From UHGV virus genome UHGV-0212259: a stretch of 44,951 nucleotides of DNA; one strand, given 5' to 3'. Origin of the DNA: a virus. A model generated the notes under the pieces. It searched no databases. It was not told where the DNA came from and saw only the letters and a program-made list of their open reading frames with translations. Positions 2,904 to 41,272 of this stretch are shown in pieces. The translations under genes and the position numbers were made by a program. Position 1 is the first letter of the stretch. Each line of letters starts with the position of its first letter.

Positions 2904-3221
2904 GTTTCTCCTTTCTCGATAAGTAAAGCCCCGCCATAAAGCGGGGCGCTAGTCCTTATCATTTAAACATAGAAACGGCATAATCTCAGTAAACCAGTTA
3001 CTTTTTACACAAGCAATAGACTATGGCCCTTCCGAACGCGTCAGCGTAACTACACTCGGACTTAACGTCCGGCTCCGTTACCTGCCACGCCGCGGTCGCT
3101 TGTTCATACTTCACAAGCTCAGGTGGAGCTTAGCACATTTTTGGTGAAAAGTCAACTATTCGAATAGTTTATTCCAACATTTACAATTGAGTGGAATAAC
3201 CGGAATACATAAACAAATAGT

Positions 3222-3253
3222 TTGCGCACCCCAATATAATAGGGTACTATTCA
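3222..3253 (+). promoter_or_regulatory. Promoter with overlapping palindromic operator (type A: TTGCGC-N7-TATAAT overlapping TAATAGGGTACTATTCA)
   Basis: TATAAT at 3235..3240; 23-nt core CCAATATAATAGGGTACTATTCA identical to sites at 5375..5397 and 38826..38848; first ATG 25 nt downstream. Confidence 0.55.
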
Positions 3254-5321: not shown

Positions 5322-5365
5322 AAGCCCTCCTGTAGTATAGACAGTGTAACGCATAAAAATAATAT

Positions 5366-5397
5366 TTGCAGACACCAATATAATAGGGTACTATTCA
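5366..5397 (+). promoter_or_regulatory. Promoter with overlapping operator (type A), second copy
   Basis: TTGCAG-N7-TATAAT (5379..5384) overlapping TAATAGGGTACTATTCA; identical 23-nt core to 3231..3253. Confidence 0.55.
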
Positions 5398-5429: not shown

Positions 5430-5711
5430 ATGGCTAAATATTCAAACAGTAATTTACATATGACATGTGTGCATGTTGATGGTGTTCAAGTAGAGTGCGT
5501 CGCCTGTTGCAGGCCTTCATGCGAAGAAGGCATATTTAAAATAGGGCGCAAGTATTGGCTGCACCACGGGTGGTTGACGCGACCTAATGGGGATGCCGAT
5601 GTAGAACTTTGGTGGGTAGAGTATCATGGTCGCTCATATATCTGTTGGCCCGAAACGAAAAACGGCACCACCCGATACACCTCTTCCAGCAATGGATTCA
5701 TATTTGTATAA
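5430..5711 (+). CDS. Cys/Trp-rich small protein (93 aa), hypothetical; single-gene plus-strand insert
   Basis: ATG with AAGGAA SD; CVHVDGVQVECVACCRPSCEEG motif; flanked by own promoter and bidirectional terminator between head morphogenesis and portal genes. Confidence 0.45.
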   Translation: MAKYSNSNLHMTCVHVDGVQVECVACCRPSCEEGIFKIGRKYWLHHGWLTRPNGDADVELWWVEYHGRSYICWPETKNGTTRYTSSSNGFIFV

Positions 5712-10140: not shown

Positions 10141-10323
10141 CTACCCCACTATCTCGTCACCAAGCCACGCCGTTTCTCGTATATCGTCAACCACACAGGC
10201 GGCGTGCTCACGGCTAATTGCAAAAATGTAGAAGCTGAACTTCTTCCCGTCGGCGTCGATATGGTTAACCGAGTAGGGTTTCCACAAGACGCCATCGATA
10301 ACTACTGGTTTAGGCGACTCCAT
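10141..10323 (-). CDS. Hypothetical protein
   Basis: 60 aa ORF tightly packed in the early gene block. Confidence 0.3.
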   Translation of the reverse strand: MESPKPVVIDGVLWKPYSVNHIDADGKKFSFYIFAISREHAACVVDDIRETAWLGDEIVG

Positions 10324-11167: not shown

Positions 11168-11196
11168 AATATAATAGGGTCGAAGGTAATAGTCAA
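11168..11196 (-). promoter_or_regulatory. Sigma70-like promoter (TTGACT-17-TATATT) with operator palindrome overlapping the -35
   Basis: Minus-strand TTGACT (11196..11191), 17-nt spacer, TATATT (11173..11168); operator TGAATAGTTGACTATTA spans the -35. Confidence 0.5.
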
Positions 11197-11218
11197 CTAT
11201 TCATTGCAGAAAATAGAT

Positions 11219-13717: not shown

Positions 13718-14412
13718 TCAGGTATAACCCCTCCGCAGTTGTCGCATACTATCGTGTTTCCGTGGTAGGTACCGCAGTGGGCAGGAACGCACTGACATAC
13801 AGGAAGCCCCACGTCTTCCTTACGGCAACCAGATTGCTCGGCTATAACCCCGCATTTGGCACAACGCCTATGCTCTTCGCCGTTAGGGTAATAATATTCC
13901 CACTCATGTTTGCATTTCTGCGTATAGGCTTTCGGCTCATACTCCGGGTCATCCCACTCACGCACACCACATTCGCAGCAAAACCGACTACCAGGCACGT
14001 TGCCCTCGTGGCCTTCGGCAATAAACAATCCTGGAGCGATAATCCAATTGTGGTCGCATTCCTGAGTATCTTCTTTTCGGCAACCGGATTGTTCTGGTGC
14101 ATCCTTACATCCGAGTTCCTCAAGTGCTTTGCTAAGGTATTGGCGACGCATGGTGTCAGTCATTGCACTATTTGCCCGCCGGATGTACCCAATCGCGCCT
14201 TTAGGGTCCAGGTCAACGATTGAACGAAGACACATAACCTCGTTTTCAGCGCAATCCAGCGCACAGGTTAGTTCCTTAATCTGCGCCGAAGCATCACGTA
14301 ACTGATTCTTAAGTGACTGCACTTCATGCGCCAGGTCTTCGCACCGGTTGTTATTTACCTGCTGCCGTAGCTGGTCAATCAGGTACTCGAATACTTCGTT
14401 TTTGTTACTCAT
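13714..14412 (-). CDS. Cys-rich protein with N-terminal coiled coil and internal repeat (probable zinc-binding)
   Basis: 232 aa; multiple CxxC pairs (CCECG, CAKCG, CDNCGG); the nonapeptide EQSGCRKED occurs twice. Confidence 0.45.
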   Translation of the reverse strand: MSNKNEVFEYLIDQLRQQVNNNRCEDLAHEVQSLKNQLRDASAQIKELTCALDCAENEVMCLRSIVDLDPKGAIGYIRRANSAMTDTMRRQYLSKALEELGCKDAPEQSGCRKEDTQECDHNWIIAPGLFIAEGHEGNVPGSRFCCECGVREWDDPEYEPKAYTQKCKHEWEYYYPNGEEHRRCAKCGVIAEQSGCRKEDVGLPVCQCVPAHCGTYHGNTIVCDNCGGVIPE

Positions 14413-14440: not shown

Positions 14441-14472
14441 TGAATAGTAGTCTATTCTATCTCAGTGTGCAA
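14441..14472 (-). promoter_or_regulatory. Promoter with overlapping operator (type A, minus strand)
   Basis: Minus-strand TTGCAC-N7-TAGAAT followed by AGACTACTATTCA; palindrome TGAATAGTAGTCTATTC at 14441..14457; about 30 nt upstream of ATG 14412. Confidence 0.5.
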
Positions 14473-14710: not shown

Positions 14711-14845
14711 TGTTGCATCTCCTGCAATAATCGCTTCTATTGTTGCGTTCGGTGAAAGTGTCGCTTTTTGACGACACTAATCTAAAGTTGTACGCTGCTG
14801 TGTAGCAGCGTAAGTCACTCAGTCAAATAGTAACCTATTGACCTG

Positions 14846-15786: not shown

Positions 15787-16005
15787 TTATTTAAAGTAGA
15801 TAGCGAATTTCTTGTAACCCGCAGGCTCATTACGAAGCCCCTTACCGATAGCGAAACGTTGTACGTTAATAAAATCATTTTCATCCATTCCGTCGGTGTC
15901 GAACGTAAAGAAGTTGCGCTTGTTCCCGATAATTACGCGCTCTGAAATATCGATGCCGTAAACTTCTCTTATTGCGGAAACCACGCTTGCGGTCGCTTTG
16001 TTCAT
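15787..16005 (-). CDS. Hypothetical protein, first gene of the minus-strand early operon
   Basis: 72 aa ORF about 35 nt downstream of the predicted transcription start of the promoter at 16037..16068. Confidence 0.35.
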   Translation of the reverse strand: MNKATASVVSAIREVYGIDISERVIIGNKRNFFTFDTDGMDENDFINVQRFAIGKGLRNEPAGYKKFAIYFK

Positions 16006-16036: not shown

Positions 16037-16068
16037 TGAATAGTAACCTATTATGTTGGGGTGTGCAA
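16037..16068 (-). promoter_or_regulatory. Promoter with overlapping operator (type A, minus strand)
   Basis: Minus-strand TTGCAC-ACCCCAA-CATAAT-AGGTTACTATTCA, near-identical to the plus-strand 23-nt core. Confidence 0.5.
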
Positions 16069-16518
16069 GAGATTCATTGAAAATGGTTACGTTGCCGTTG
16101 TGATTCTTCAGGTAGGGTTGTGCCTTTATTCTTATTACTTAGTAACTAAAGGGCAGGCCTTAAGCCTGCCCAATAATCGTTACATTTTTACGGTTGCGAA
16201 TCTACGGCACATTAAGAAAATCAGATACTTAAGAGATATGCCGCCGATGAGAATAGAGCTTGCCCAGGGTAACCGGAGATACTTAGGGAGGAAGTTACGA
16301 TAATTCTTATGTTCAGTAAACTTTCGCTTAACACTTTGCTTGCGCTGCGCGCAGCTGCGTTTTAAGCGGTTTTACAAGGTGAACAGGAATCAAAGTAACT
16401 AAGATACAGAAGCACCTTAAACGAAGATTTTCATAATGTCAATAGGTGCGATTATGTTTGATTTCCCATTATTCGCAATGTATACTTGGTTTCGTTAACT
16501 GATAATGAGGGTTTGAGA

Positions 16519-16689
16519 ATGACACAGAATGAAGTAGCTGAGCGTATCGGGGTTACTCGCCGCACGCTGAATAACTGGTTAAGGAGCGGGAAGTTCCCGG
16601 ATTGTTGTATCCGCATTATGGGTCGCCGCCAGCCTGGTACGTTCGACCCGGAGAAAGTGGAAGCGTGGATTAAGGAGAACGTGAAATGA
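16519..16689 (+). CDS. Small HTH DNA-binding protein
   Basis: 56 aa from ATG 16519 with GAGGG SD; segment VAERIGVTRRTLNNWLRSGKFP is a classic helix-turn-helix. Confidence 0.5.
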   Translation: MTQNEVAERIGVTRRTLNNWLRSGKFPDCCIRIMGRRQPGTFDPEKVEAWIKENVK

Positions 16690-16977: not shown

Positions 16978-19218
16978 ATGTCCGATGTAATTTTATCCTA
17001 CTCGTGGTCTCGTCGCAACGCGCGGGCAGAGAAAAAGGATATAAACGTCAGAACTACACACACGGCAACACTGGACGACCTGAAAGAGTTAATCCAGCCG
17101 CTCGATGCTGTTCGTGATGGGATTAACCCGAAGACCGCGCCCGGTTATATCACTGCCGCGTGTGACTCGACGCACAGCACCGTAAAAGACCCGGAAACAG
17201 GAGACTTTAAGCAGGCGCGTAAAGGCTTTTTCTATCGCTGCGACGCGTCTGTAAGCAAATCGTCGCTGGCGTATCTGGACTTCGACAACGCAACGCCGGA
17301 AGAGTATCAGGAAGCGGTGCGCCTGGTTAAGCGCAGCCGCCGGGCTATGTGTCTCTATACCACGGCATCACATACCGATGAGTCCCCGCGCTTTCGCGTC
17401 GTCATGCCGCTGGGCCACCCTGTTGAAGGCGGCGACATCATCCGCGTTCGCCATGGATTGTTGGAACACTTCTTCAAAGGTATGGGCGCCGACCGCAGCG
17501 GTTTTACCCTGTCCCAGCCGATGTACCTGCCGCCAGTTGGCTCTACCGTTATCTGGTCGCGTCGCAACGACCTGATTGACCCGGACGAGTTACTGGAAGG
17601 CATCCCCGCCGTTGACGTTAGCAGCGCATCTGACTACCAGATACCGGAAGAACTACGCACTGCGTTTACCGACGCGTTTGAAGCCCTGGCGTTCGAGTAC
17701 GGTGGCATCATGACGCCGCGCGGACTAAAAATGCCAGCTACACCGGAACACGCAGAGAACTACAGCGACCCGACGCCGCGCTCGGACGACTTCCTGCTGT
17801 GTTTCCCGCGCGAGGGGTATGAAGCGCCGAACGTAACCATGATTCACGACACTGACATCTCGGCGACAGAAGGCATGTCACCGAAAGAGGTGTGGCAGTA
17901 CGCGTGTTACGCTACCGGGCTGCCATTCAGTGAAGTTGCAGAGGCCATCGGCTGGGGCGCCCGTGAGTCCGTTTCATGCAGCCTCGACGACCTGGAAGAC
18001 GATGAGGACTCAGAGGAGGACGAGTTACCGGAACCGGTAACGGCTGATTTCGTCGTCGAAGGGTACATGCCGTCAGATTGCATATGGGGTATCGTCGGGG
18101 AATCTGGAACGTACAAATCGTTTTATACACTGGGGATGATGTACCTTAGCGCCGCGGGATACCGGTTTGCGGGGGCGGATACCCAGCGTTGTCACCATTT
18201 CTATATCGACGGTGAGGGCGGTGCTGCTACACGTACACGTATCGACGCACTCGCGGCTAAATATGGCGTGGAAGGTAAAGATTATGTACATGTTATTGAC
18301 ATGGGCGAAGTCGGCAAACTGAAAAGCCTGATTAAGCTAATGCGCGAAACTGCTGGCGACGAGCCAATTGGGATGGTCGCGTTCGACACCCTCAACCAGA
18401 CGCTGGCCCTGACGATTGATAAGTTTGACGAGAACAGTTCATCAACGGCAATCGGCATGGGTAAAGTTATCGCCATCCTGAAAGAAGTACGCGACGCGAC
18501 TAAAGCCGCGGTAGGTGTTGTCCATCATACGCCGAAGGGGGGAAAGAAAGCCCGTGGCAGCGGGGCACTGTATGCAGGTGTCGACGTGGAACTGACAATC
18601 GAACGTGCAACCGACCGTCAAATAAATGTATACCACTCTAAATTTAAGCACGGGCCTCAACAGAAAACTGTCGGTATGGTTCTGGAGTCCGTACAGTTCC
18701 GTGAAGCCCCGCCGCCGAAAGAATACCGTGCTGTTGAGTTCCTGGGTAGCACCGAGGAATATGGCACAATCGTAAACCTCGACCTGCCTGAGCCTCACAA
18801 GGCGCTTGTGCTGATGCCGTGGGGCTTCGAACCGTTCAAAACTGACGAGGAGAAAGAGCGGGAAGAAGGCATAACAAAGGAAGGTAAAGAAAACGTAAAG
18901 AATGCCGTAAAACGTGGGAAGGATGGAGGACGTAAGGAATCCATACTCGCCGCGCTGGAAGACCTGCAACAGTCTGACGACACCGGACGAGGTTTTACCC
19001 AACGGCAGATAGTAGCGAACTCGGGCGACCACGCCATCACCAACCACCATCTCGAGAAGATGCTGAAAGACGGGGAGTTGATGCTCGGGTGCGATGTTAA
19101 CGGTGAAGTTATGCCAGGCACATACCGGATACCGGAAAAGATGGGTGACAGATTAAGACCGAAGACAATATACGAACCAAATGAAATGCTGGTGGTTACA
19201 GAGGAGGATTTGGAATAG
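16978..19218 (+). CDS. Primase-polymerase (AEP-type) fused to RecA/DnaB-like helicase
   Basis: 746 aa; N-terminal AEP-like motifs (LAYLDFDN, TASHTDESPRFRV); central Walker A GESGTYKSF and VVHHTPKGG; acidic linker; C-terminal TEEDLE. Confidence 0.7.
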   Translation: MSDVILSYSWSRRNARAEKKDINVRTTHTATLDDLKELIQPLDAVRDGINPKTAPGYITAACDSTHSTVKDPETGDFKQARKGFFYRCDASVSKSSLAYLDFDNATPEEYQEAVRLVKRSRRAMCLYTTASHTDESPRFRVVMPLGHPVEGGDIIRVRHGLLEHFFKGMGADRSGFTLSQPMYLPPVGSTVIWSRRNDLIDPDELLEGIPAVDVSSASDYQIPEELRTAFTDAFEALAFEYGGIMTPRGLKMPATPEHAENYSDPTPRSDDFLLCFPREGYEAPNVTMIHDTDISATEGMSPKEVWQYACYATGLPFSEVAEAIGWGARESVSCSLDDLEDDEDSEEDELPEPVTADFVVEGYMPSDCIWGIVGESGTYKSFYTLGMMYLSAAGYRFAGADTQRCHHFYIDGEGGAATRTRIDALAAKYGVEGKDYVHVIDMGEVGKLKSLIKLMRETAGDEPIGMVAFDTLNQTLALTIDKFDENSSSTAIGMGKVIAILKEVRDATKAAVGVVHHTPKGGKKARGSGALYAGVDVELTIERATDRQINVYHSKFKHGPQQKTVGMVLESVQFREAPPPKEYRAVEFLGSTEEYGTIVNLDLPEPHKALVLMPWGFEPFKTDEEKEREEGITKEGKENVKNAVKRGKDGGRKESILAALEDLQQSDDTGRGFTQRQIVANSGDHAITNHHLEKMLKDGELMLGCDVNGEVMPGTYRIPEKMGDRLRPKTIYEPNEMLVVTEEDLE

Positions 19219-19220
19219 GT

Positions 19221-19250
19221 AAAAAGAAAGGGGCGTTAAGCCCCTTCACC
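19221..19250. terminator. Hairpin terminator shared by converging primase-helicase and repressor genes
   Basis: AAGGGGC-gttaa-GCCCCTT at 19228..19246 with A-run upstream (U-run on minus strand). Confidence 0.5.
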
Positions 19251-19451
19251 GAACGCCAGCCACTTGGCGTCTACTTGCAGCACTTCCGCCAGTTTAAACA
19301 GCGTTGCCGGGCGGACGTCCTGAGTTACCCCGAGTGCGAGCTGGTTAATCGCACCCTGGGAAACGCCGGCCAGGACAGCCAGACGGCGCTGTGAGATGCC
19401 GAGTTCTTTACGGCGTTGTTCTACACGAATGCCTAGTTCAGATGGTTGCAT
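19236..19451 (-). CDS. XRE/Cro-type HTH transcriptional regulator
   Basis: 71 aa; LGISQRRLAVLAGVSQGAINQLALG is a canonical XRE helix-turn-helix; encoded divergently from the operator-bearing promoters at 19472..19544. Confidence 0.7.
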   Translation of the reverse strand: MQPSELGIRVEQRRKELGISQRRLAVLAGVSQGAINQLALGVTQDVRPATLFKLAEVLQVDAKWLAFGEGA

Positions 19452-19471
19452 GTCAATTACTCCTTAGTCAG

Positions 19472-19500
19472 TTGATATGTGAATAGTACCATATTAATTA
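19472..19500 (+). promoter_or_regulatory. Promoter/operator, upstream copy of a tandem pair
   Basis: TTGATA-17-TAATTA with palindrome TGAATAGTACCATATTA in the spacer. Confidence 0.4.
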
Positions 19501-19515
19501 TTTTAGAAAAGCCAA

Positions 19516-19544
19516 TTGACATGTGAATAGTTCGCTATTATAGT
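19516..19544 (+). promoter_or_regulatory. Sigma70 consensus-like promoter with operator in the spacer (type B)
   Basis: TTGACA (19516..19521), 17-nt spacer containing GAATAGTTCGCTATT, TATAGT (19539..19544); about 30 nt upstream of first early plus-strand ORF. Confidence 0.6.
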
Positions 19545-19575
19545 TAGCCCATACCAAATGAGAGGAGAGAAACAA

Positions 19576-19725
19576 ATGATTAACAACCGCAAAGCAAAGA
19601 TTCTGTTAGGACTTGATATAGCATTCGGGGTTAAAGAAACTGCGCGCTATCGCGTGAGCAACAATCGTGTTGGCTTCTTCGACAAAGTAACAGGTCAGTT
19701 AGTTAAAACCGTTAAATATAAATAA
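19576..19725 (+). CDS. Hypothetical small protein (49 aa), first early plus-strand gene
   Basis: ATG preceded by GGAGAGAAACAA, the same 12-nt SD context as the next gene. Confidence 0.35.
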   Translation: MINNRKAKILLGLDIAFGVKETARYRVSNNRVGFFDKVTGQLVKTVKYK

Positions 19726-19740
19726 ACAGGAGAGAAACAA

Positions 19741-20202
19741 ATGTTAGAGAAATTCTTAGTATTACTGGAACGTTTCGTAGTTGCACACGAAATTATTGCA
19801 GCGAACAGCGCGAAACAAGTTGTCGTTGCGGAAACTGCAACAATCGAGCCTACTGTTGCACCAAAAGAAATCCCGGTAGAAGGTGAAGACATCGTCGACA
19901 CTCAACCGGCAGAAGAAGAGAAGCCGAAACGCAAGCAGCGTAAAGCTAAAGTAGAGGAACCAACGCCAGAACCGGAAGAAGTGAAAGAAGAAGTCGATTA
20001 CCAGTCTCTTCGTGACCAGATTCAGGCTATCGACGATGCAATTAACGAAGGTCCGAGCGATGCCGCGTGCGATGATTCCGATGAACTGCTGGAAGAGTTT
20101 ACCGGTAAGAAGATGAAGATTGCTGCGATTAAAGACGAAGACCTGGCTGAATACCTGGAGCGCCTGACGGCAATCAAGAACAAGTATTTCGAAGAAGAAT
20201 AA
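19741..20202 (+). CDS. Highly acidic protein with a short basic patch
   Basis: 153 aa; long D/E-rich stretches (EEEKP...EEPTPEPEEVKEEVD...DDSDELLEEF) and KPKRKQRKAK patch. Confidence 0.45.
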   Translation: MLEKFLVLLERFVVAHEIIAANSAKQVVVAETATIEPTVAPKEIPVEGEDIVDTQPAEEEKPKRKQRKAKVEEPTPEPEEVKEEVDYQSLRDQIQAIDDAINEGPSDAACDDSDELLEEFTGKKMKIAAIKDEDLAEYLERLTAIKNKYFEEE

Positions 20203-20245
20203 CTATCTGGCGGCCTTCGGGCCGCTTTAACTGAGGGTCGGAATT

Positions 20246-20518
20246 ATGATTTACCAACTCTATCGCGCCGTAGACAGGCGGGATAACACAGAGGCGCTAT
20301 GGCTATTGCGTGCGCCGTCCGGTGCGCACCAGATGGAAGAGATGGCGTACTTAGGCAAAGTACCGCGGCCTAAAGATATAGGCCGTCACGTGTCGCAGAT
20401 TAAGCGTACGACTTTCGCCAAGCCAGACTTTTATGTCTTCGAGTCGATGTATGGGTGGGCTATGCACTGCGAACATAAGACTCGGCATTTAATTGACCAG
20501 TGGGAGACAAGGGTATGA
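20246..20518 (+). CDS. Hypothetical protein
   Basis: 90 aa ORF with GAGGG SD. Confidence 0.4.
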   Translation: MIYQLYRAVDRRDNTEALWLLRAPSGAHQMEEMAYLGKVPRPKDIGRHVSQIKRTTFAKPDFYVFESMYGWAMHCEHKTRHLIDQWETRV

Positions 20519-21756
20519 TTTTAAAGGAACGCGGCGGCAATAACGATGTACACGCCTTACTGTCACCGTCGGGTGCTAAGAAGTGGCTAAGCTGCGCGGC
20601 ATCACTGGCCTGTGAAAAAGATATTCCTAACACGTCCGGTAAAGCCGCGGTATTAGGAACAGCTATGCACACCATAGCAGAGATGCACCTTAACCAGTAC
20701 ATCAAAGGCACTGCGTTGCCGTTAGAACGCGAGGTCGGTGCTTACGTGCTGGACGAGGGTAAAGGCCAGATTAAGGCGCTAATCAGTCCGATGAAAGGCG
20801 TGGTACTGATTACGGCGGACATGATTGAGCAGGTGCGCAAGTACACCGACTACTGCAAAGCGATTATCGACGTAGCGACTTACGCCAAGCTGGAAATGCG
20901 CGTCAATCTTACTGAAGTATTGCATCCGGGGTATGAAGGCGTTGAGACGTTCGGAACCGCTGACCTTGTTGCCGTTCAGGAACTGGCTAACACCGACGAG
21001 CGCATGCTAATCATCGGCGACCTGAAAACAGGACGGCATCGTGTCGAAGCGAAAGAAAACAAACAGCTTATGCTATACGCTCTCGGTGTTTATCGCCGCC
21101 TCAAGAGACGATATAACATCACAGTTGTTCGTCTGGTAATCTTCCAGCCGTACGCTGGTGGCGCGTCCGAGTGGGACATCTCGGTCGAAGGTCTGGAACT
21201 GTTTGCTAAGTTCGCACAGAAACGCGCGCTGTTAGCCCTTGATGCTTATTTCCGCGGCAAGAAGAACCTGAAAGCGTCGGACTTCAAACCATCGGTCGAT
21301 GGCTGTCAGTGGTGTCGGTTCTCTGAACAATGTGCCGCGCGTACAAAGACGGTTAATTCTGTACTGGCGGAAGAACTGGAGGACGACTTTGCGCTGGAAC
21401 TTACTCCGGAGCAACTCATCGCTGAGTATGAGAAGTTGCCGTTGTTGCGCCAGCACATCGACAAGGTCGAGAAAGCTATGGCCGCCGCGTTGCATTCTGG
21501 CAAGAAAGTACCGGGGTACAAGCTGGTTGAGGGTCGGCCGGGTAATCGCGCGTGGAAAGACGCAGAGAAAGTGGCCGAGAAATACGGCGGCAAGCTGACC
21601 AAAGAAGTGCTCATGACGCCGACCGAAGCGGTTAAAGTAATACCGGAAGAAGAACTGAAAGACTTCATTACCCGTAAACCAGGCGCGCCATGCGTCGCAA
21701 CGGCGGACGACAAACGTCCTGAGTGGAATCAGGTAACAGAGGAGGATTTGGAATGA
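20515..21756 (+). CDS. PD-(D/E)XK nuclease, Cas4/RecB-like (resembles DUF2800-type phage exonuclease)
   Basis: About 413 aa from ATG 20515; GTADLV...IIGDLKTGRH nuclease core; Cys cluster CQWCRFSEQC; C-terminal TEEDLE. Confidence 0.6.
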   Translation: MILKERGGNNDVHALLSPSGAKKWLSCAASLACEKDIPNTSGKAAVLGTAMHTIAEMHLNQYIKGTALPLEREVGAYVLDEGKGQIKALISPMKGVVLITADMIEQVRKYTDYCKAIIDVATYAKLEMRVNLTEVLHPGYEGVETFGTADLVAVQELANTDERMLIIGDLKTGRHRVEAKENKQLMLYALGVYRRLKRRYNITVVRLVIFQPYAGGASEWDISVEGLELFAKFAQKRALLALDAYFRGKKNLKASDFKPSVDGCQWCRFSEQCAARTKTVNSVLAEELEDDFALELTPEQLIAEYEKLPLLRQHIDKVEKAMAAALHSGKKVPGYKLVEGRPGNRAWKDAEKVAEKYGGKLTKEVLMTPTEAVKVIPEEELKDFITRKPGAPCVATADDKRPEWNQVTEEDLE

Positions 21757-22004
21757 TTCGTAAAATGTTCAGAGTAATTGGCGGTTTTGTGGCGTGTATT
21801 ATTTTCTGGGTTCTTATGTCGCCGCTAATGATACCAACATTTATCATAGCGTGCCTTACGATATGCCTAATGCGAACACGCGACATCGAAGCCATCCTGA
21901 ATGACAAATCGTGGAAGACACAGGCGTTACGTTTCATAAACAACATGAAATGGCCAAACAAGTATATTGAGATAGTTGAGAAAATAACTGGCTGGAAGGG
22001 TTGA
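21753..22004 (+). CDS. Small membrane protein (2 TM)
   Basis: 83 aa from ATG 21753 (ATGA overlap with upstream stop; GAGGAGGA SD); hydrophobic segments VIGGFVACIIFWVLM and IPTFIIACLTICLM. Confidence 0.45.
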   Translation: MIRKMFRVIGGFVACIIFWVLMSPLMIPTFIIACLTICLMRTRDIEAILNDKSWKTQALRFINNMKWPNKYIEIVEKITGWKG

Positions 22005-22029
22005 CACCTGAATAGTTAGCTATTATATT
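22001..22029 (+). promoter_or_regulatory. Sigma70-like promoter with operator in spacer (type B) upstream of SSB-like gene
   Basis: TTGACA (22001..22006), 17-nt spacer containing TGAATAGTTAGCTAT, TATATT (22024..22029). Confidence 0.55.
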
Positions 22030-22732: not shown

Positions 22733-22757
22733 TAAGGCCCTTCATTGGGCCTTTTTA
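22733..22757 (+). terminator. Rho-independent terminator after SSB-like gene
   Basis: Hairpin AAGGCCC-ttcattg-GGCCTT followed by TTTTT. Confidence 0.55.
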
Positions 22758-22768
22758 CCGGAGTCAGA

Positions 22769-23242
22769 ATGGAACATATAAAAGATTTTCTAAGCTACGA
22801 CCGAGAGACAGGGGTATTCACGTGGGTACAGCCTACTTACCGTCGAGGGCGACCGGGAGACATCGCGGGGTGCATCAATAGTAGTGGATACTGGCGAATT
22901 CCGTACATGGGTCGATATTACATGGCGCACAGGCTAGCGTGGTTTTTCGAGTATGGTGAATGGCCCGAAGGCCCTCTTGACCATATAAACCGTGACAGGT
23001 TAGACAATAGGATTTCTAACCTAAGGAAAGCAACAACCGCTGATAATGTGCGAAACGCTAAAAATAAGGGAGCTAGAACAGGAGTTAAGGGAGTAGTTAA
23101 AAACGGCAACCGATTTTACGGGCGTGTGCATTTTAACTACAAAAGCTATAACGCCGGTAGCTACGGAACTCTTGAAGAAGCAGAAAGCGCTGTAAAGAAA
23201 TTAAGAGAAAAACTGCACAAGGAATTTTATTGCCATGACTAG
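22769..23242 (+). CDS. HNH homing endonuclease with AP2-like domain (copy 1)
   Basis: HRLAW...DHINRDRLDNRISNLR HNH core; paralogous to 26331..26828; free-standing, overlaps DNA polymerase start. Confidence 0.65.
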   Translation: MEHIKDFLSYDRETGVFTWVQPTYRRGRPGDIAGCINSSGYWRIPYMGRYYMAHRLAWFFEYGEWPEGPLDHINRDRLDNRISNLRKATTADNVRNAKNKGARTGVKGVVKNGNRFYGRVHFNYKSYNAGSYGTLEEAESAVKKLREKLHKEFYCHD

Positions 23243-25831: not shown

Positions 25832-26112
25832 CCCCGGAAGGCAAGATTCAGAAATACGCAAAAGACCGATTCGAGGCCATTGGTGGCCTCGTTCGTAAAC
25901 TTTCCTACGAAGGACGTTCCGGTGCTCCTGACCTGCTGGTGATTCTCCCCGGCGGTATAATCTGGTTTGTCGAGGTGAAGAAAGACGAAAACACGAAGCC
26001 AGACCCGCACCAGTTACGTGAGCACGAGCGGATGCGTAAACGTGGTGCGAATGTTTTTGTCGTTGGTTCGTTTAAACAGGTTGACGACCTAATAGCGAAC
26101 TATTATAGTTAG
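25828..26112 (+). CDS. VRR-NUC domain nuclease
   Basis: 94 aa; PD-(D/E)XK signature GAPDLLVIL...WFVEVKK characteristic of VRR-NUC. Confidence 0.65.
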   Translation: MTPEGKIQKYAKDRFEAIGGLVRKLSYEGRSGAPDLLVILPGGIIWFVEVKKDENTKPDPHQLREHERMRKRGANVFVVGSFKQVDDLIANYYS

Positions 26113-26142: not shown

Positions 26143-26334
26143 ATGAAACACGAATATGACCGCAAACCAGCACGTGACATCGTACCTGGCGACATGATTT
26201 TCAACGTTAAGACCCGCCAGCCTGTTGCCGTTGATACGGTGTACGTCGAGTCGAACGGTAAACTGGTTATCGAAGACGTAACCGGTAACGTTACGGCGTT
26301 CGGGCGTAAAGAGTTAGTTCTGGTGGCGAAATGA
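26143..26334 (+). CDS. Hypothetical protein
   Basis: 63 aa ORF with AAGGAA SD. Confidence 0.4.
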   Translation: MKHEYDRKPARDIVPGDMIFNVKTRQPVAVDTVYVESNGKLVIEDVTGNVTAFGRKELVLVAK

Positions 26335-26828
26335 ACAAATTAACAAGAAGGCCTGATATTGAGGAGGCGAAACGTCTTCTTAACTATGACCCCGAAACAG
26401 GTATATTTACACGAAAAGTAAGCATTAAAGGGAGAAATGCGGGGGAGGTAGCCGGAGGGCCAAACGACAAAGGATACATAGTTATTACAGTCTCCGGTGT
26501 AAGAATAAAAGCCCACCATCTGGCATGGGCTTTCGTCTACGGAGAATATCATAACGGTGAGCTTGACCATAAAGACCGTAACAGGGCTAATAACGCCATA
26601 AATAATATAAGGCCAGCAGCCAGGAGCCAGCAGATTCAGAACCGAGACTGCTCATCACATAACACTAGCGGCGCGATAGGGGTTTACCAAATATCCTCTG
26701 GCAGGTGGCGCGCCAGAATAGGCGTCAATAACAAATACATCCACCTTGGCTATTTTGATACTATAGAAGAAGCGTCGCGCGTATACCAAAGAGCCGCGGA
26801 AATATACTTCGGGGAGTTCAAGGCATGA
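26331..26828 (+). CDS. HNH homing endonuclease with AP2-like domain (copy 2)
   Basis: YDPETGIFT...HHLAW...DHKDRNRANNAINNIR; paralog of 22769..23242; inserted between VRR-NUC region and SNF2 helicase. Confidence 0.65.
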   Translation: MNKLTRRPDIEEAKRLLNYDPETGIFTRKVSIKGRNAGEVAGGPNDKGYIVITVSGVRIKAHHLAWAFVYGEYHNGELDHKDRNRANNAINNIRPAARSQQIQNRDCSSHNTSGAIGVYQISSGRWRARIGVNNKYIHLGYFDTIEEASRVYQRAAEIYFGEFKA

Positions 26829-34198: not shown

Positions 34199-35596
34199 TT
34201 AACCGCCCACATTAAAGTCGATACGAGTGATGTATTTACTGCCCCACGAAGAATCCGCTTGGGGGATGGCGGCATAACCGTCAACAGCCTGAACGTTTAC
34301 CACAGAGCCGTCGGAATAGGTTATGTCGATGCTTATTGCGCCGTTCATTACTACTTTTGCCGATGCCGCTTGGCGGGTTACAGCAGAAGAATTGGTTATT
34401 ATTGGCGAAGTAGCAAATTCTGATTTTTCTATTTGCATCGCACATACTAATACCCCGCTAACACCGTCACCCGCAAACGACGCAGCCTGGGCATTGTCGT
34501 ACACCCACGATGCTAACAGTAGAGAAGAAGCCCCTCCTTGACGTATCTCCACTTGCTCGGTAAATCTGTACCAACCACCGCCACAGTTAATTATAGTACT
34601 ATTAGCGGCTCCAGAGGATATAGTTCCGTCCTGCAGATTAGCACGACAATCAGAGATAAACCCCACATTATCAGCAGCGCGAAGTCTTGCATAATTATAA
34701 CCATAGGCCTTAGCCACGTAACTGAGGGTGTATATATCTCCTTCCGCAAAAGCGGAAGACACTGATTGCTGTGTGATATGGTTGCCGTTCGTCGTGGTCG
34801 GGGTTAGCGAGAACGTACCGCCGTTTAGAATTACATCTACTGCATCTGACACCGTTGTGTTAGTTTTTGACCACGATGCGTCAGATAATTTCGACGATTT
34901 AATCAGAATATTGCTGGATGCGGATTCCGGCGGCACACGCCCGACAGCAACCCCGTCAACAAACGTAAGAGGCCATTCATTGGCGGCGGACCGCACAAGA
35001 TTACCGTTGCGGTTGATATAGTAAACCTGTGGCCCATCATACACAATGCGGCTATCAAGAGTCGATGCCAGAAGGTTAATCGGCGGGTATCCTGCAGGCC
35101 CTTCATTGCTCCAGATACGCGGGAACGTCGTCTCATAGTTAGCGTATATTTTCAGGAAACTACCCAGGCAGTCACCATAGCAGCCGTACAAATCTGGCAG
35201 ATTGTTAATCAGGCACTGGTTCTCAAGGTCCTGGAACGGTGATTTCTCGGCGGTTGCCGTGAAAGTAATCGTCCAGTTAATGCCGTCTTCGGTGGACTCC
35301 GCGATGGTGGACGTGATTGTTACCTGATAATCCTCGATACCCATGCCGAAGTCGTGCGCCATCCAGAAACTTGACGCACCGCCATCGACTTTCTCAAGGA
35401 ACGACAAAAACGCCTGGCGCCCCATTGCGGATGTAATCAGGGTTACGCTCACCGGAAACACGTCGTAATACGTGTCACGGCCCTGACGTACGCCGCCGGC
35501 CGCTAAATCTACACTCCAGACGTTGTTACGTCTGGTCATCGAGTAACCTTTCGACACAATAGGCTTAAGGCTACGTGGGAAATATAAGTCGGTCAT
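34199..35596 (-). CDS. Distal tail protein (putative)
   Basis: 465 aa immediately downstream of tape measure gene (start/stop overlap). Confidence 0.45.
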   Translation of the reverse strand: MTDLYFPRSLKPIVSKGYSMTRRNNVWSVDLAAGGVRQGRDTYYDVFPVSVTLITSAMGRQAFLSFLEKVDGGASSFWMAHDFGMGIEDYQVTITSTIAESTEDGINWTITFTATAEKSPFQDLENQCLINNLPDLYGCYGDCLGSFLKIYANYETTFPRIWSNEGPAGYPPINLLASTLDSRIVYDGPQVYYINRNGNLVRSAANEWPLTFVDGVAVGRVPPESASSNILIKSSKLSDASWSKTNTTVSDAVDVILNGGTFSLTPTTTNGNHITQQSVSSAFAEGDIYTLSYVAKAYGYNYARLRAADNVGFISDCRANLQDGTISSGAANSTIINCGGGWYRFTEQVEIRQGGASSLLLASWVYDNAQAASFAGDGVSGVLVCAMQIEKSEFATSPIITNSSAVTRQAASAKVVMNGAISIDITYSDGSVVNVQAVDGYAAIPQADSSWGSKYITRIDFNVGG

Positions 35597-38292: not shown

Positions 38293-38709
38293 CTACTTTT
38301 CCTGCAATTGGTGTAGCTGTTCATTGTGGAAAACAACAACGTGTTCAGCGAGGCGTTTATATTGTGAGAAAAGGGTATTCAGGTTCTCTTTATTAAATTC
38401 ATCGTCGAGACTCCAACCGTTAACTAGTTCAAGTGCTAACTGGCGGTTAAGGTCCGTCGCGGCGTCTTCCATCTTAATATTGTATTCCGAGAAATCTTTC
38501 AGTTCCTCGCATTTATCACGAAGCGGTTTCAATTTACCTAATGCCGCGCGGTACGCAAGTGTAAACGCCCTCATAGCTTTAACAGCAACGTCTGCCTCCG
38601 GTGAAACAACGTTAAGCCACTCCCCTGAATCGGTGCCGTCTTTCAGTGGGATCGGCATACGGGCGCCTTTTTCCGCCTCAGCTTCGTAATAAAAATCGGA
38701 AAGTTTCAT
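38293..38709 (-). CDS. Tail assembly chaperone (G-like)
   Basis: 138 aa acidic protein immediately upstream of tape measure gene; ends QLQEK at the putative slippery site. Confidence 0.55.
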   Translation of the reverse strand: MKLSDFYYEAEAEKGARMPIPLKDGTDSGEWLNVVSPEADVAVKAMRAFTLAYRAALGKLKPLRDKCEELKDFSEYNIKMEDAATDLNRQLALELVNGWSLDDEFNKENLNTLFSQYKRLAEHVVVFHNEQLHQLQEK

Positions 38710-38816
38710 TCTTTAATCCTTTGGTTAAGAGGTTACTGGTTAAGGTGAATGCGCCAGGCGGGAACCACCCGCTTTTCGTGTGCGACACTAGGCGCAAACT
38801 TATTCTAGCACACTAC

Positions 38817-38848
38817 TTGCAGGCCCCAATATAATAGGGTACTATTCA
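38817..38848 (+). promoter_or_regulatory. Promoter with overlapping operator (type A), third identical copy
   Basis: TTGCAG-GCCCCAA-TATAAT (38830..38835) overlapping TAATAGGGTACTATTCA. Confidence 0.55.
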
Positions 38849-40718: not shown

Positions 40719-41272
40719 TGGCTAAGGTAATTATTCTTAATGGTCCGGCGGGTTGCGGGAAAGACACACTTGCTATGGCGCTGGTAGAAATGGGCTTTGC
40801 GAAAGGAACTACCAGTTTCAAGAATCCAATGTTCGATATTGCTTTGGCAGCGTTAGGCCCGGATGCTTACCGCGAATTTCTCGACGGCTACGACGACCGG
40901 GCACGGAAAGAAAAGCCAGAGGGTTTTCTTAATGGGTTGTCCCGTCGTCAGTTCATGATTGCCGTTTCTGAGCAATTCATTAAACCGGTATTCGGTGATG
41001 ATTATTTCGGTAAGTATCTTGCTGAAAACTTGCCAGACGGCAACGAAGTTTTTGTAGTGTCCGACGGTGGATTCGCCAGTGAAGTTGCCCCTATCGTCGC
41101 CGCGGGGCATGACGTGCGAATCGTTCGCCTCCATCGTGACGGCTATACATTTGAGGGGGACAGCCGTGGTTATCTGTATGGCGTTGATGGTGTAAAAGAT
41201 TACGATACCTACATCATACCAGGTGATGTTAAATCGAACGTTATAGACATTGCTTTAAAATTAGGTTTGTAA
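40718..41272 (+). CDS. P-loop nucleotide kinase, dNMP kinase-like
   Basis: 184 aa; Walker A GPAGCGKDT at residues 9-17; overall pattern resembles T4 gene 1 dNMP kinase (from memory). Confidence 0.55.
   Translation: MAKVIILNGPAGCGKDTLAMALVEMGFAKGTTSFKNPMFDIALAALGPDAYREFLDGYDDRARKEKPEGFLNGLSRRQFMIAVSEQFIKPVFGDDYFGKYLAENLPDGNEVFVVSDGGFASEVAPIVAAGHDVRIVRLHRDGYTFEGDSRGYLYGVDGVKDYDTYIIPGDVKSNVIDIALKLGL

Follow-up and report, generated by a model that had tools for sequence, protein, structure and literature searches.

The virus genome UHGV-0212259, a stretch of 44,951 nucleotides to which we refer as the window, carries a minus-strand gene for a 71-aa helix-turn-helix (HTH) regulator of the XRE type (hereafter XRE), and an 18-bp palindrome that lies twice beside this gene recurs in about ten other promoters. 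We consider it slightly better than even that XRE binds these sites and mainly represses. Because the candidate operator is embedded in promoters of replication, accessory, lysis and packaging/head genes, XRE would probably act as a genome-wide repressor or damper of phage transcription. A repressor that works through palindromic promoter operators is a known kind of system; what is unusual is the genome-wide reach in a lytic phage that has no integrase. We found no paper on these operators or on targets of the XRE protein.

Judging from its matches, the window is a near-complete, essentially whole genome of a Kagunavirus (Guernseyvirinae), a phage infecting E. coli, because a megablast search with positions 18000-22000 returned Kagunavirus and Jerseyvirus genomes of 41-45 kb. 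In total 449 phage records were matched, with Escherichia phage M01 best at 95% identity and many Kagunavirus and Jerseyvirus genomes after it. In these relatives, the XRE gene is annotated as a 'transcriptional repressor', 'DicA' or 'helix-turn-helix protein'. For comparison, we used 51 related loci from IMG/VR, in which XRE falls into a Kagunavirus type (34 loci, 94-100% identical), a Jerseyvirus type (13 loci, ~51%), a Cornell/STP-1 type (4 loci, 39-41%) and one other.

An earlier note on this DNA, made from the letters alone, had picked out the minus-strand XRE gene, and this assignment is borne out by a match of the 71-aa open reading frame (ORF) to Pfam HTH_3 (PF01381; E=1.2e-12, 48.1 bits against a gathering cut-off of 23, residues 11-65). 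Pfam matches are to HTH families only, and the protein is small and single-domain. A phmmer search against the PDB placed 434 Cro first (4.9e-7, residues 6-68), followed by the DNA-binding domains of 434 repressor and P22 c2. An AlphaFold2 (AF2) model built from the single sequence, of moderate confidence (predicted local distance difference test, pLDDT, 84), has five helices (5-17, 21-28, 32-39, 48-57 and 62-66). Foldseek ranked 2cro first with this model (template modelling scores 0.72/0.78, 40% identity), ahead of SinR, HipB, restriction-modification (R-M) controller proteins and P22 c2. Neither Pfam nor the AF2 model reveals a peptidase S24, RecA-cleavable or oligomerisation domain, and the chain ends six residues past helix 5. 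By homology and predicted structure, then, XRE is a 434-Cro/P22-c2-type HTH protein with a five-helix fold. Its identity of 94-100% across the 34 Kagunavirus loci is unusually high within the genus, as expected of a protein that would be locked to a dozen sites.

The divergent region between XRE and the replication/recombination operon

A non-coding gap of 124 bp (19452..19575) separates XRE from the first plus-strand gene, whose ATG at 19576 is preceded by a GGAG Shine-Dalgarno sequence. The earlier note had described two operator palindromes in this region, the downstream one lying in the spacer of a TTGACA-17-TATAGT promoter, and we recovered both palindromes (O1 and O2) and that promoter. 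The features of the region are as follows.

19236..19451, minus strand: gene of the XRE / 434-Cro-like regulator, 71-aa ORF with HTH_3 match, predicted recognition helix VSQGAINQL (residues 30-38)
19460..19467, minus strand: XRE Shine-Dalgarno, reading CTAAGGAG on that strand, 8 nt from the ATG
19480..19497: O1, weaker imperfect candidate operator TGAATAG-TACC-ATATTAA (minus strand TTAATAT-GGTA-CTATTCA)
19483..19488, minus strand: predicted XRE -10, TACTAT, inside O1; the -35 is poor in Kagunavirus
19500..19527, minus strand: alternative predicted XRE promoter, TTCACA(19527-22)-16-TAAAAT(19505-00), 10/12 in the promoter scan
19516..19544, plus strand: rightward promoter, TTGACA(19516-21)-17-TATAGT(19539-44), 11/12 to consensus in the promoter scan
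19524..19541: O2, strong candidate operator TGAATAG-TTCG-CTATTAT in the spacer of the rightward promoter, centre at about -18.5
19576..19725, plus strand: first gene of the rightward operon, 49 aa, matching phrog_1380 (PHROG category: unknown function)
19227..19247, scored on the minus strand: GC-rich hairpin terminator aaaggggcgttaagcccctt, 8-bp stem with 5 GC pairs, T-run on the minus strand

The last three bases of O2 are the first three of the rightward -10. Its reverse complement reads TATAATAG-CGAA-CTATTCA, in agreement with the minus-strand arrangement TATAATAG-N4-CTATTCA given before. The genes that follow the rightward promoter form a replication/recombination operon: a small ORF, a '13.88 kDa protein' gene, a NinX-like gene and nuclease genes. 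The small 49-aa ORF is present in ~6 of 34 related loci, and elsewhere the 13.88-kDa gene directly follows the promoter; this distribution marks it as a likely small accessory insertion just downstream of the promoter. At the other end of the XRE gene, the terminator hairpin overlaps the stop codon and separates XRE from the helicase-primase gene (stop at 19218). From its position, the hairpin probably also terminates the plus-strand helicase operon.

O1 is a poorer palindrome, with a right half that fits 5 of 7 positions, and its end lies 28 nt upstream of the XRE ATG. TACTAT within it is probably the -10 of the XRE promoter, to judge from the Jerseyvirus orthologue and from the invariant O1 centre: the Jerseyvirus XRE promoter reads TTGCnn-17-TACTAT with the same leader ACTAAGGAG...ATG, and the central 4 bp of O1, which create TACTAT on the XRE strand, are invariant in Kagunavirus while those of O2 vary. 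The leader element ACTAAGGAG is conserved upstream of XRE in Kagunavirus, Jerseyvirus and Cornell-type phages alike. The alternative XRE promoter, mostly conserved in relatives, would have its -35 over the left half of O2 and its predicted start inside O1. Hence, both operators would touch the XRE promoter under either assignment.

The same comparison disposes of a tandem pair of plus-strand promoters, which had been read into the region earlier. The upstream candidate, TTGATA(19472)-18-AATTAT, scored only 9/12 in the promoter scan and sits within the XRE leader and Shine-Dalgarno region; its proposed -35 is not conserved, appearing in Kagunavirus relatives as TCGATA, CCGATA, TTTATA or TTGATG. 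O1 is best assigned to the XRE promoter and not to a second plus-strand promoter, because the Jerseyvirus orthologue TTGCnn-17-TACTAT reads toward XRE, with O1 in the register that we call type A below.

To define a footprint, we aligned the 34 unique Kagunavirus versions of the divergent region. TTGACA, TATAGT and both arms of O2 are invariant. The linker between the -35 and O2 varies between 2 and 3 nt through an indel, giving a rightward spacer of 17 or 18 bp, and the central 4 bp of O2 occur as TTCG, CTCG, TTCA, TTAG, CTAG and TTTG. O1 is nearly invariant, its central 4 bp included. Invariant half-sites around a variable centre and next to a variable linker make an operator-like footprint.

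Two sites adjoin the regulator gene in all three lineages. Their centres lie at 19488.5/19532.5 in the window, at 34485.5/34540.5 in the Jerseyvirus SETP3 and at 10168.5/10232.5 in the Cornell-type phage STP-1, that is, 44, 55 and 64 bp apart (~4.2, 5.2 and 6.1 helical turns). The helical phase is thus roughly kept, on three data points that could agree by chance.

The palindrome in promoters across the genome

The earlier claim that the operator recurs across the genome proved correct. A search with TGTGAATAGNNNNCTATT, allowing at most 2 mismatches, gave 11 genome matches against 0.28 expected. An unbiased scan of the whole genome with all 5-mer arms and spacers of 0-8 put AATAG-N4-CTATT far ahead of all other over-represented palindromes (10 exact copies where 0.04 were expected); the other enriched palindromes were GC-rich terminator stems only. 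Non-coding DNA makes up 9.2% of the genome and holds 11 of 14 near-matches (binomial P ~1e-9), and a twelfth reaches into the final codons of the gene upstream. The dispersed sites number 12, against the at least 10 sites by which genome-wide operator regulons are recognised, and mark ~12 promoters. The consensus of the 18-bp candidate operator, in a 7-4-7 layout, is TGAATAG-N4-CTATT(A/C)(T/A).

The sites overlap the -35, the spacer or the -10 of promoters, with the exception of the copy at 14824, which has no clear promoter. We sorted the promoter-associated sites into three registers. First, type A (3236, 5380, 38831, 16037, 14441 and O1 in the XRE direction) reads yTTGCAx-N8-ATAATAG-nnTA-CTATTCA and lies 27-32 nt from the start codon, a distance that O1 shares. 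The best reading across lineages is TTGCAx-17-TACTAT, with the site centred at about -12.5; TATAAT without a -35 would be possible as well. Second, type B (19524, 22009 and 26089) reads TTGAC(A/G)-N2-palindrome, with a -10 (TATAGT or TATATT) that begins in the last three bases of the site and a centre at about -18.5. Third, in type C (11186 and 3145) the -35 TTGACT is made of the palindrome centre and right arm, and the centre lies at about -33.5. Apart from O1 and O2, the sites are the following.

3145..3162, minus strand: weaker site of type C, CGAATAG-TTGA-CTTTTCA, lying over a TTGACT -35 and preceding the spanin-like, scaffold and capsid genes
3236..3253, plus strand: type-A cassette TTTGCGCACCCCAAT-ATAATAGGGTACTATTCA, upstream of a 114-aa plus-strand gene
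5380..5397, plus strand: type-A cassette, identical 18-mer, 32 nt upstream of a 93-aa plus-strand gene at 5430
11186..11203, minus strand: type-C site TGAATAG-TTGA-CTATTAC, whose TTGACT is the -35 of TTGACT-17-TATATT, upstream of Nin-like and terminase genes
14441..14458, minus strand: type-A site AGAATAG-ACTA-CTATTCA, 28 nt from the ATG at 14412
14824..14841, minus strand: weaker copy TCAATAG-GTTA-CTATTTG, adjoining a hairpin, without a clear promoter
16037..16054, minus strand: type-A site CTTGCAC-N8-ATAATAG-GTTA-CTATTCA, 31 nt from the ATG at 16005, at the head of the leftward operon
22009..22026, plus strand: type-B site in the spacer of TTGACA(22001)-17-TATATT, upstream of genes for a Gp2.5-like single-stranded DNA-binding protein (SSB; DUF2815) and DNA polymerase
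26089..26106, plus strand: type-B site CTAATAG-CGAA-CTATTAT within the TTGACG-17-TATAGT spacer, preceding a 63-aa ORF, an HNH endonuclease gene and a DNA helicase gene
38831..38848, plus strand: type-A cassette, identical 18-mer, 27 nt upstream of a cluster of superinfection-immunity, exonuclease, polynucleotide kinase and deoxynucleoside monophosphate kinase genes

Behind the site-bearing promoters, therefore, stand the replication/recombination genes, three opposite-strand accessory clusters, the leftward operon of small genes and lysis, and the packaging and head genes. A few promoter-like sites are without the motif; one is TTGATT(16458)-17-TATACT before the HTH_17/helicase-primase operon.

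From the gene and fold class of XRE, the motif statistics, the overlap with promoters, the conservation pattern and the co-variation between lineages, all of which are shown here, we infer binding, dimerisation, a repressive sign, an order of operator occupancy and a physiological role along the following lines. XRE, most likely as a dimer, would bind the 18-bp operator and occlude RNA polymerase. O2, with both arms at consensus, would be occupied first and shut the near-consensus promoter of the rightward replication/recombination operon. O1, with its one degenerate arm, would be occupied at higher XRE concentration and limit XRE synthesis. These proposed effects follow from the placement of the sites, because O2 lies between the rightward -35 and -10 and on the candidate XRE -35, and O1 lies on the XRE -10/start. 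The outcome would be a one-protein negative-feedback loop of the Cro type and, because there is no partner repressor, not a bistable switch. The same operator in about ten other sigma-70-type promoters would act from positions on the -10 in type A, in the spacer in type B and on the -35 in type C. We favour repression over activation at these promoters because the register varies (-12.5, -18.5 and -33.5). The weaker operators (O1, 3145 and 14824) suggest graded occupancy.

Several side observations concern individual sites. The three type-A cassettes of ~33 bp, yTTGCrsrCmCCAAT-ATAATAGGGTACTATTCA with identical 18-mers (3221-3253, 5365-5397 and 38816-38848), each precede an opposite-strand accessory gene or cluster set within the structural-gene region, and the cassette looks like a portable regulated promoter of moron-like genes. 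The weaker copy at 14824 adjoins a conserved hairpin (tacgctgct...agcagcgta; window 14790-14841), and a similar site (38733) lies beside the same hairpin in SETP3 (38700-38750); the pair of elements may be a regulated terminator or roadblock. The type-C site at 11186 also has an orthologue in SETP3, at 40838. Between the leftward type-A promoter and the HTH_17 gene there is a non-coding stretch of ~430 bp (16055-16485) with a strong hairpin (16151-16171), a GC-rich palindrome near 16340-16354 and the palindrome-less TTGATT(16458)-17-TATACT. No iterons or repeats were found in this stretch, which may contain an immediate-early promoter or the origin region. Lastly, two HNH homing-endonuclease genes, both on the plus strand (22745-23242 and 26331-26828), interrupt the replication module; one has an AP2 DNA-binding domain, and the presence of such genes varies among relatives.

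Co-variation of the sites in three lineages

The motif is about equally dense in Kagunavirus (0.37 per kb) and Jerseyvirus (0.32 per kb) and nearly absent from the Cornell type (0.01 per kb), with no matches in the Cornell-type phage STP-1. The STP-1 SSB promoter keeps the orthologous TTGACA-17-TATATT and the conserved leader, with GAATTAT in place of the left arm; the SETP3 orthologue of the same 22009 site carries TTAATAG. The palindrome thus appears to be dispensable for promoter function and not merely part of the promoter, because the STP-1 promoter does without the left arm, the motif is absent in the Cornell type and two type-B sites are not divergent.

Half-sites differ between the genera as well. 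Sites with GAATAG as one arm and TAATAG as the other form the majority in each of the 35 Kagunavirus genomes or loci (recognition helix QGAINQ); the 13 Jerseyvirus loci (QSLITH) all have T at position 2 in >90% of arms. Comparison across the loci thus indicates that the half-site subtype follows the XRE type: GAATAG plus TAATAG in Kagunavirus, TAATAG only in Jerseyvirus, none in the Cornell type. The TAATAG arm of type-B sites is dictated by the promoter, since the position in question doubles as the -11 A of the -10 hexamer.

A tidy code that links recognition helix to operator over the three lineages was rejected, since the Jerseyvirus and Cornell helices are similar and, of the two, Jerseyvirus alone has the motif. 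Among Cornell-type phages, XRE is the first gene of the helicase-primase operon, on the same strand, and promoters carry a weaker 5-4-5 repeat, ATTAS-N4-STAAT, whose right arm overlaps a TAATAT -10 and which lies in promoter spacers. In STP-1, it is found at 10157-10241, 13478, 14399, 26311 and 33031; intergenic DNA holds 6 copies against 0.8 expected, for a pattern that was defined post hoc. Its genome-wide density in the Cornell type is no higher than in Kagunavirus, and its signal in the unbiased scan is weak. That this repeat is the diverged Cornell operator is suggestive and statistically soft.

As a control of the method, we considered an unrelated Klebsiella phage (klb_E), in which an XRE protein with a 434-like helix (KQQTIQQ) has a site of the 434 type, ACAA-N6-TTGT, just upstream. 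A divergent HTH gene pair flanks this site (34290-34330), which reads ACAAAC-TT-GTTTGT.

The candidate binder of the palindromes and what it may do

Two small DNA-binding proteins are recognisable in the genome, XRE and HTH_17 (TorI/excisionase-like; 16519..16689, plus strand). By its distribution, XRE is the only candidate binder present in every palindrome-bearing genome, and the only consistent one, in keeping with the earlier proposal that it is the prime candidate for a global regulator. Two further ORFs were tried and rejected: orf16686 is missing from most Kagunavirus loci, and the 63-aa ORF (26143..26334), a 'transcriptional regulator' in phage EM1, has a beta-rich sequence without a DNA-binding domain in Pfam or PHROGs.

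Several points weigh against XRE as a general repressor at these sites. First, the -10 of type A can be read in two ways, as TACTAT spaced 17 bp from TTGCAx or as TATAAT lacking a -35. Second, Kagunavirus sites are systematically asymmetric, with G in one half against T in its partner; such sites would not be expected of a symmetric dimer, and overlap with the -10 accounts for this asymmetry only in part. Third, the co-variation covers two or three lineages and therefore one or two evolutionary events. Fourth, the match of helix to operator is not clean, because there is no simple correspondence of QGAINQ, QSLITH and QSAISH with AATAG, AATAG and no site, respectively: the Kagunavirus and Jerseyvirus helices differ substantially, yet the operator core AATAG is identical, and the Cornell helix QSAISH resembles that of Jerseyvirus, but Cornell-type phages are without the motif. 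Fifth, an unrecognised small DNA-binding phage protein is a possible binder. Finally, it is hard to see what a strictly lytic phage would gain from one protein that represses nearly all of its promoters.

Among the alternatives, we think it unlikely that XRE regulates its own divergent region only, with the other copies bound by a different phage protein or carried in inherited promoter cassettes that have no regulator. O1 and O2 beside the gene are the sole arrangement that autoregulation predicts, and the three type-A cassettes, identical over ~30 bp, could reflect duplication. The same 18-bp element with invariant half-sites nevertheless stands at three registers and in non-duplicated promoters (types B and C), the same genus-specific difference at position 2 is seen at all sites, and no other universally conserved DNA-binding candidate was found among the loci.

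A shade less likely again is that XRE binds the sites as an activator, in a dual role, or as a timer by switching on the weak promoters of type A. The -35 hexamers of type A, weak (TTGCAx) or lacking, would suit such a role. Activators, by contrast, normally need a fixed register, and here the site centre varies from about -12.5 to -33.5; type-B promoters are, moreover, already near consensus (11/12).

We regard as improbable an origin of the palindrome in the promoters themselves, without a dedicated protein, through overlap of -10-like hexamers (TAcTAtTAtAgT) or the symmetry of bidirectional promoters. As such an origin would have it, each site has one half that overlaps or adjoins a -10-like hexamer, and several sites lie in divergent regions. 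Symmetry fails for the two type-B sites at 22009 and 26089, because these are not in divergent regions, and in type C it is the -35 that the site covers. TGAATAG, the half outside the -10, is invariant while adjacent spacer bases vary, STP-1 keeps orthologous promoters without the palindrome, and the genus-specific G/T difference has no sigma-70 rationale.

The case for HTH_17 as the binder, for example as an early activator or repressor, is poorer still, and we largely rejected it. Its distribution is at first sight suitable: the protein is found in Kagunavirus and Jerseyvirus (82-90% identical) and is absent from the Cornell-type STP-1, itself without the motif. In a low-resolution, non-synchronous Kagunavirus RNA-seq study (PMC12645636), an HTH-domain gene (008) is listed as early, and a 'specific DNA binding' gene (004), next to an AAA-domain gene (005), falls in the middle class; from gene order, we infer that 008 is HTH_17 and 004 is XRE. 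HTH_17 also has a promoter-like site of its own (16458-86) without the palindrome. It is, however, naturally absent from two Kagunavirus loci, L030 (8 sites kept) and L017 (5 sites kept), and its mosaic alleles (72-100% within Kagunavirus) do not track the genus-specific site subtype. Excisionase-type winged helices, in addition, usually bind direct repeats as monomers and not 7-4-7 palindromes. In L030 (12559-13144), HTH_17 is replaced by a 149-aa ORF and a 47-aa Zn-ribbon ORF, and L017 likewise has unrelated ORFs in its place; the gene has been described as a genus marker, though it is mosaic within Kagunavirus.

A host transcription factor is the least credible binder: nothing direct favours it beyond a superficial likeness of the motif to AT-rich enterobacterial operators, phages of E. 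coli and of Salmonella have systematically different versions of the motif, which Cornell-type Salmonella phages lack, although E. coli and Salmonella regulators are nearly identical, and we know of no E. coli operator consensus with TGAAT-N8-ATTCA spacing.

With XRE preferred as the binder, the closest likeness is to 434 Cro, which has the same length (71 aa), is likewise a single HTH domain without a cleavage domain, and is encoded beside palindromic sites that overlap divergent promoters, as predicted for XRE. The 434 operators are 14 bp long (ACAA-N6-TTGT) and form three-site arrays at OR and OL, between cro and cI, whereas XRE has 18-bp (7-4-7) sites, two at its gene and ~10 elsewhere, and no cI partner. 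The recognition helices also differ (QGAINQ in XRE, QQSIQL in 434). Operator geometry is instead that of P22 c2, whose 18-bp operators have 7-bp arms ending in AG and 4 central bases that are not contacted; this fits the XRE site, including its invariant arms and variable centre, and the c2 recognition helix SNVAISQW is similar to VSQGAINQL. P22 c2, however, has a C-terminal domain for dimerisation and RecA cleavage and maintains lysogeny, whereas XRE is the DNA-binding domain alone, and the arm sequence differs.

The predicted mechanism is that of lambda-type Cro, a small dimer that occludes promoters and thereby turns down early transcription as well as its own production. The fold of lambda Cro is different, and XRE, unlike lambda Cro, has no competing CI, no bistability and targets beyond an immunity region. 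The conserved inverted repeats of phiC31 and the 'stoperators' of L5 gp71 likewise give one phage regulator a dozen or more dispersed sites. Those phages are temperate and their regulators belong to other protein families, and the L5 sites are asymmetric and act within transcription units; the XRE sites, in contrast, are palindromic and in core promoters of an apparently strictly lytic phage, with no prophage for the regulator to maintain. C.AhdI and C.Esp1396I are small XRE dimers that autoregulate through palindromic boxes over their own promoter, with strong and weak sites. Such R-M C proteins control a single operon and are concentration-dependent activators and repressors; no R-M system is involved in the phage.

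These comparisons bear on the suggestion, made in the earlier note, of an autoregulated Cro-like circuit. It holds in so far as XRE is a 434-Cro-like single domain with palindromes on both divergent core promoters; a switch between two repressors does not, as no partner is present. Opposite XRE, where lambdoid immunity regions have a cI-type gene, stands the replication/recombination operon (49-aa ORF, 13.88-kDa protein and nuclease), and no second repressor, cI-like partner or S24 domain was found in the window or in relatives.

The lack of an integrase or lysogeny module, also noted earlier, is borne out by several searches. Pfam and PHROG scans of otherwise unaccounted ORFs in the window gave no integrase or partition genes and no lysogeny module, and the annotations of SETP3, EM1 and STP-1 contain no integrase. 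No copy of the phage was found by megablast in 5,426 complete RefSeq E. coli genomes, nor a convincing prophage among species-representative bacterial genomes. Guernseyvirinae have been described as virulent (PMC9409062): the BASEL paper and a Salmonella phage genome-mining paper regard them so, and mention the TorI-like HTH_17 gene but no XRE regulon. One record stands apart: CP088689.1, a complete circular Kagunavirus genome of 44,086 bp, was deposited under the name 'plasmid pC16EC0033-2', from a clinical blood isolate of E. coli. It is ~91% identical to the phage and matches window positions 18500-21000. A carrier state or pseudolysogeny could explain this 'plasmid', and phage contamination of the culture explains it equally well.

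XRE could serve to damp sigma-70 transcription as infection proceeds, to confer immunity against related phages, or to keep a dormant state. In the boldest version, to which we give a low probability, XRE would be a whole-genome brake that could keep the incoming genome transcriptionally silent and episomal, in a carrier or pseudolysogenic state that can be reversed, and could also provide genus-specific superinfection immunity; the G/T difference at operator position 2 could then define immunity groups.

Kagunavirus and Jerseyvirus are among the most frequently isolated phages of E. coli and Salmonella and are used in biocontrol, in therapy cocktails and as synthetic-biology chassis. The 'transcriptional repressor' gene of Guernseyvirinae is routinely flagged in safety assessments, without a known target. 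An 18-bp operator, ~12 promoters and a genus-specific variant would turn this annotation into a testable regulatory map, and the Kagunavirus and Jerseyvirus versions would offer a compact orthogonal repressor/operator pair for engineering. The regulon would also explain how a sigma-70-dependent lytic phage without a known RNA polymerase modifier might time or limit its transcription. If XRE does silence the whole genome, this would bear on carrier states and superinfection immunity in phages that are supposed to be strictly virulent.

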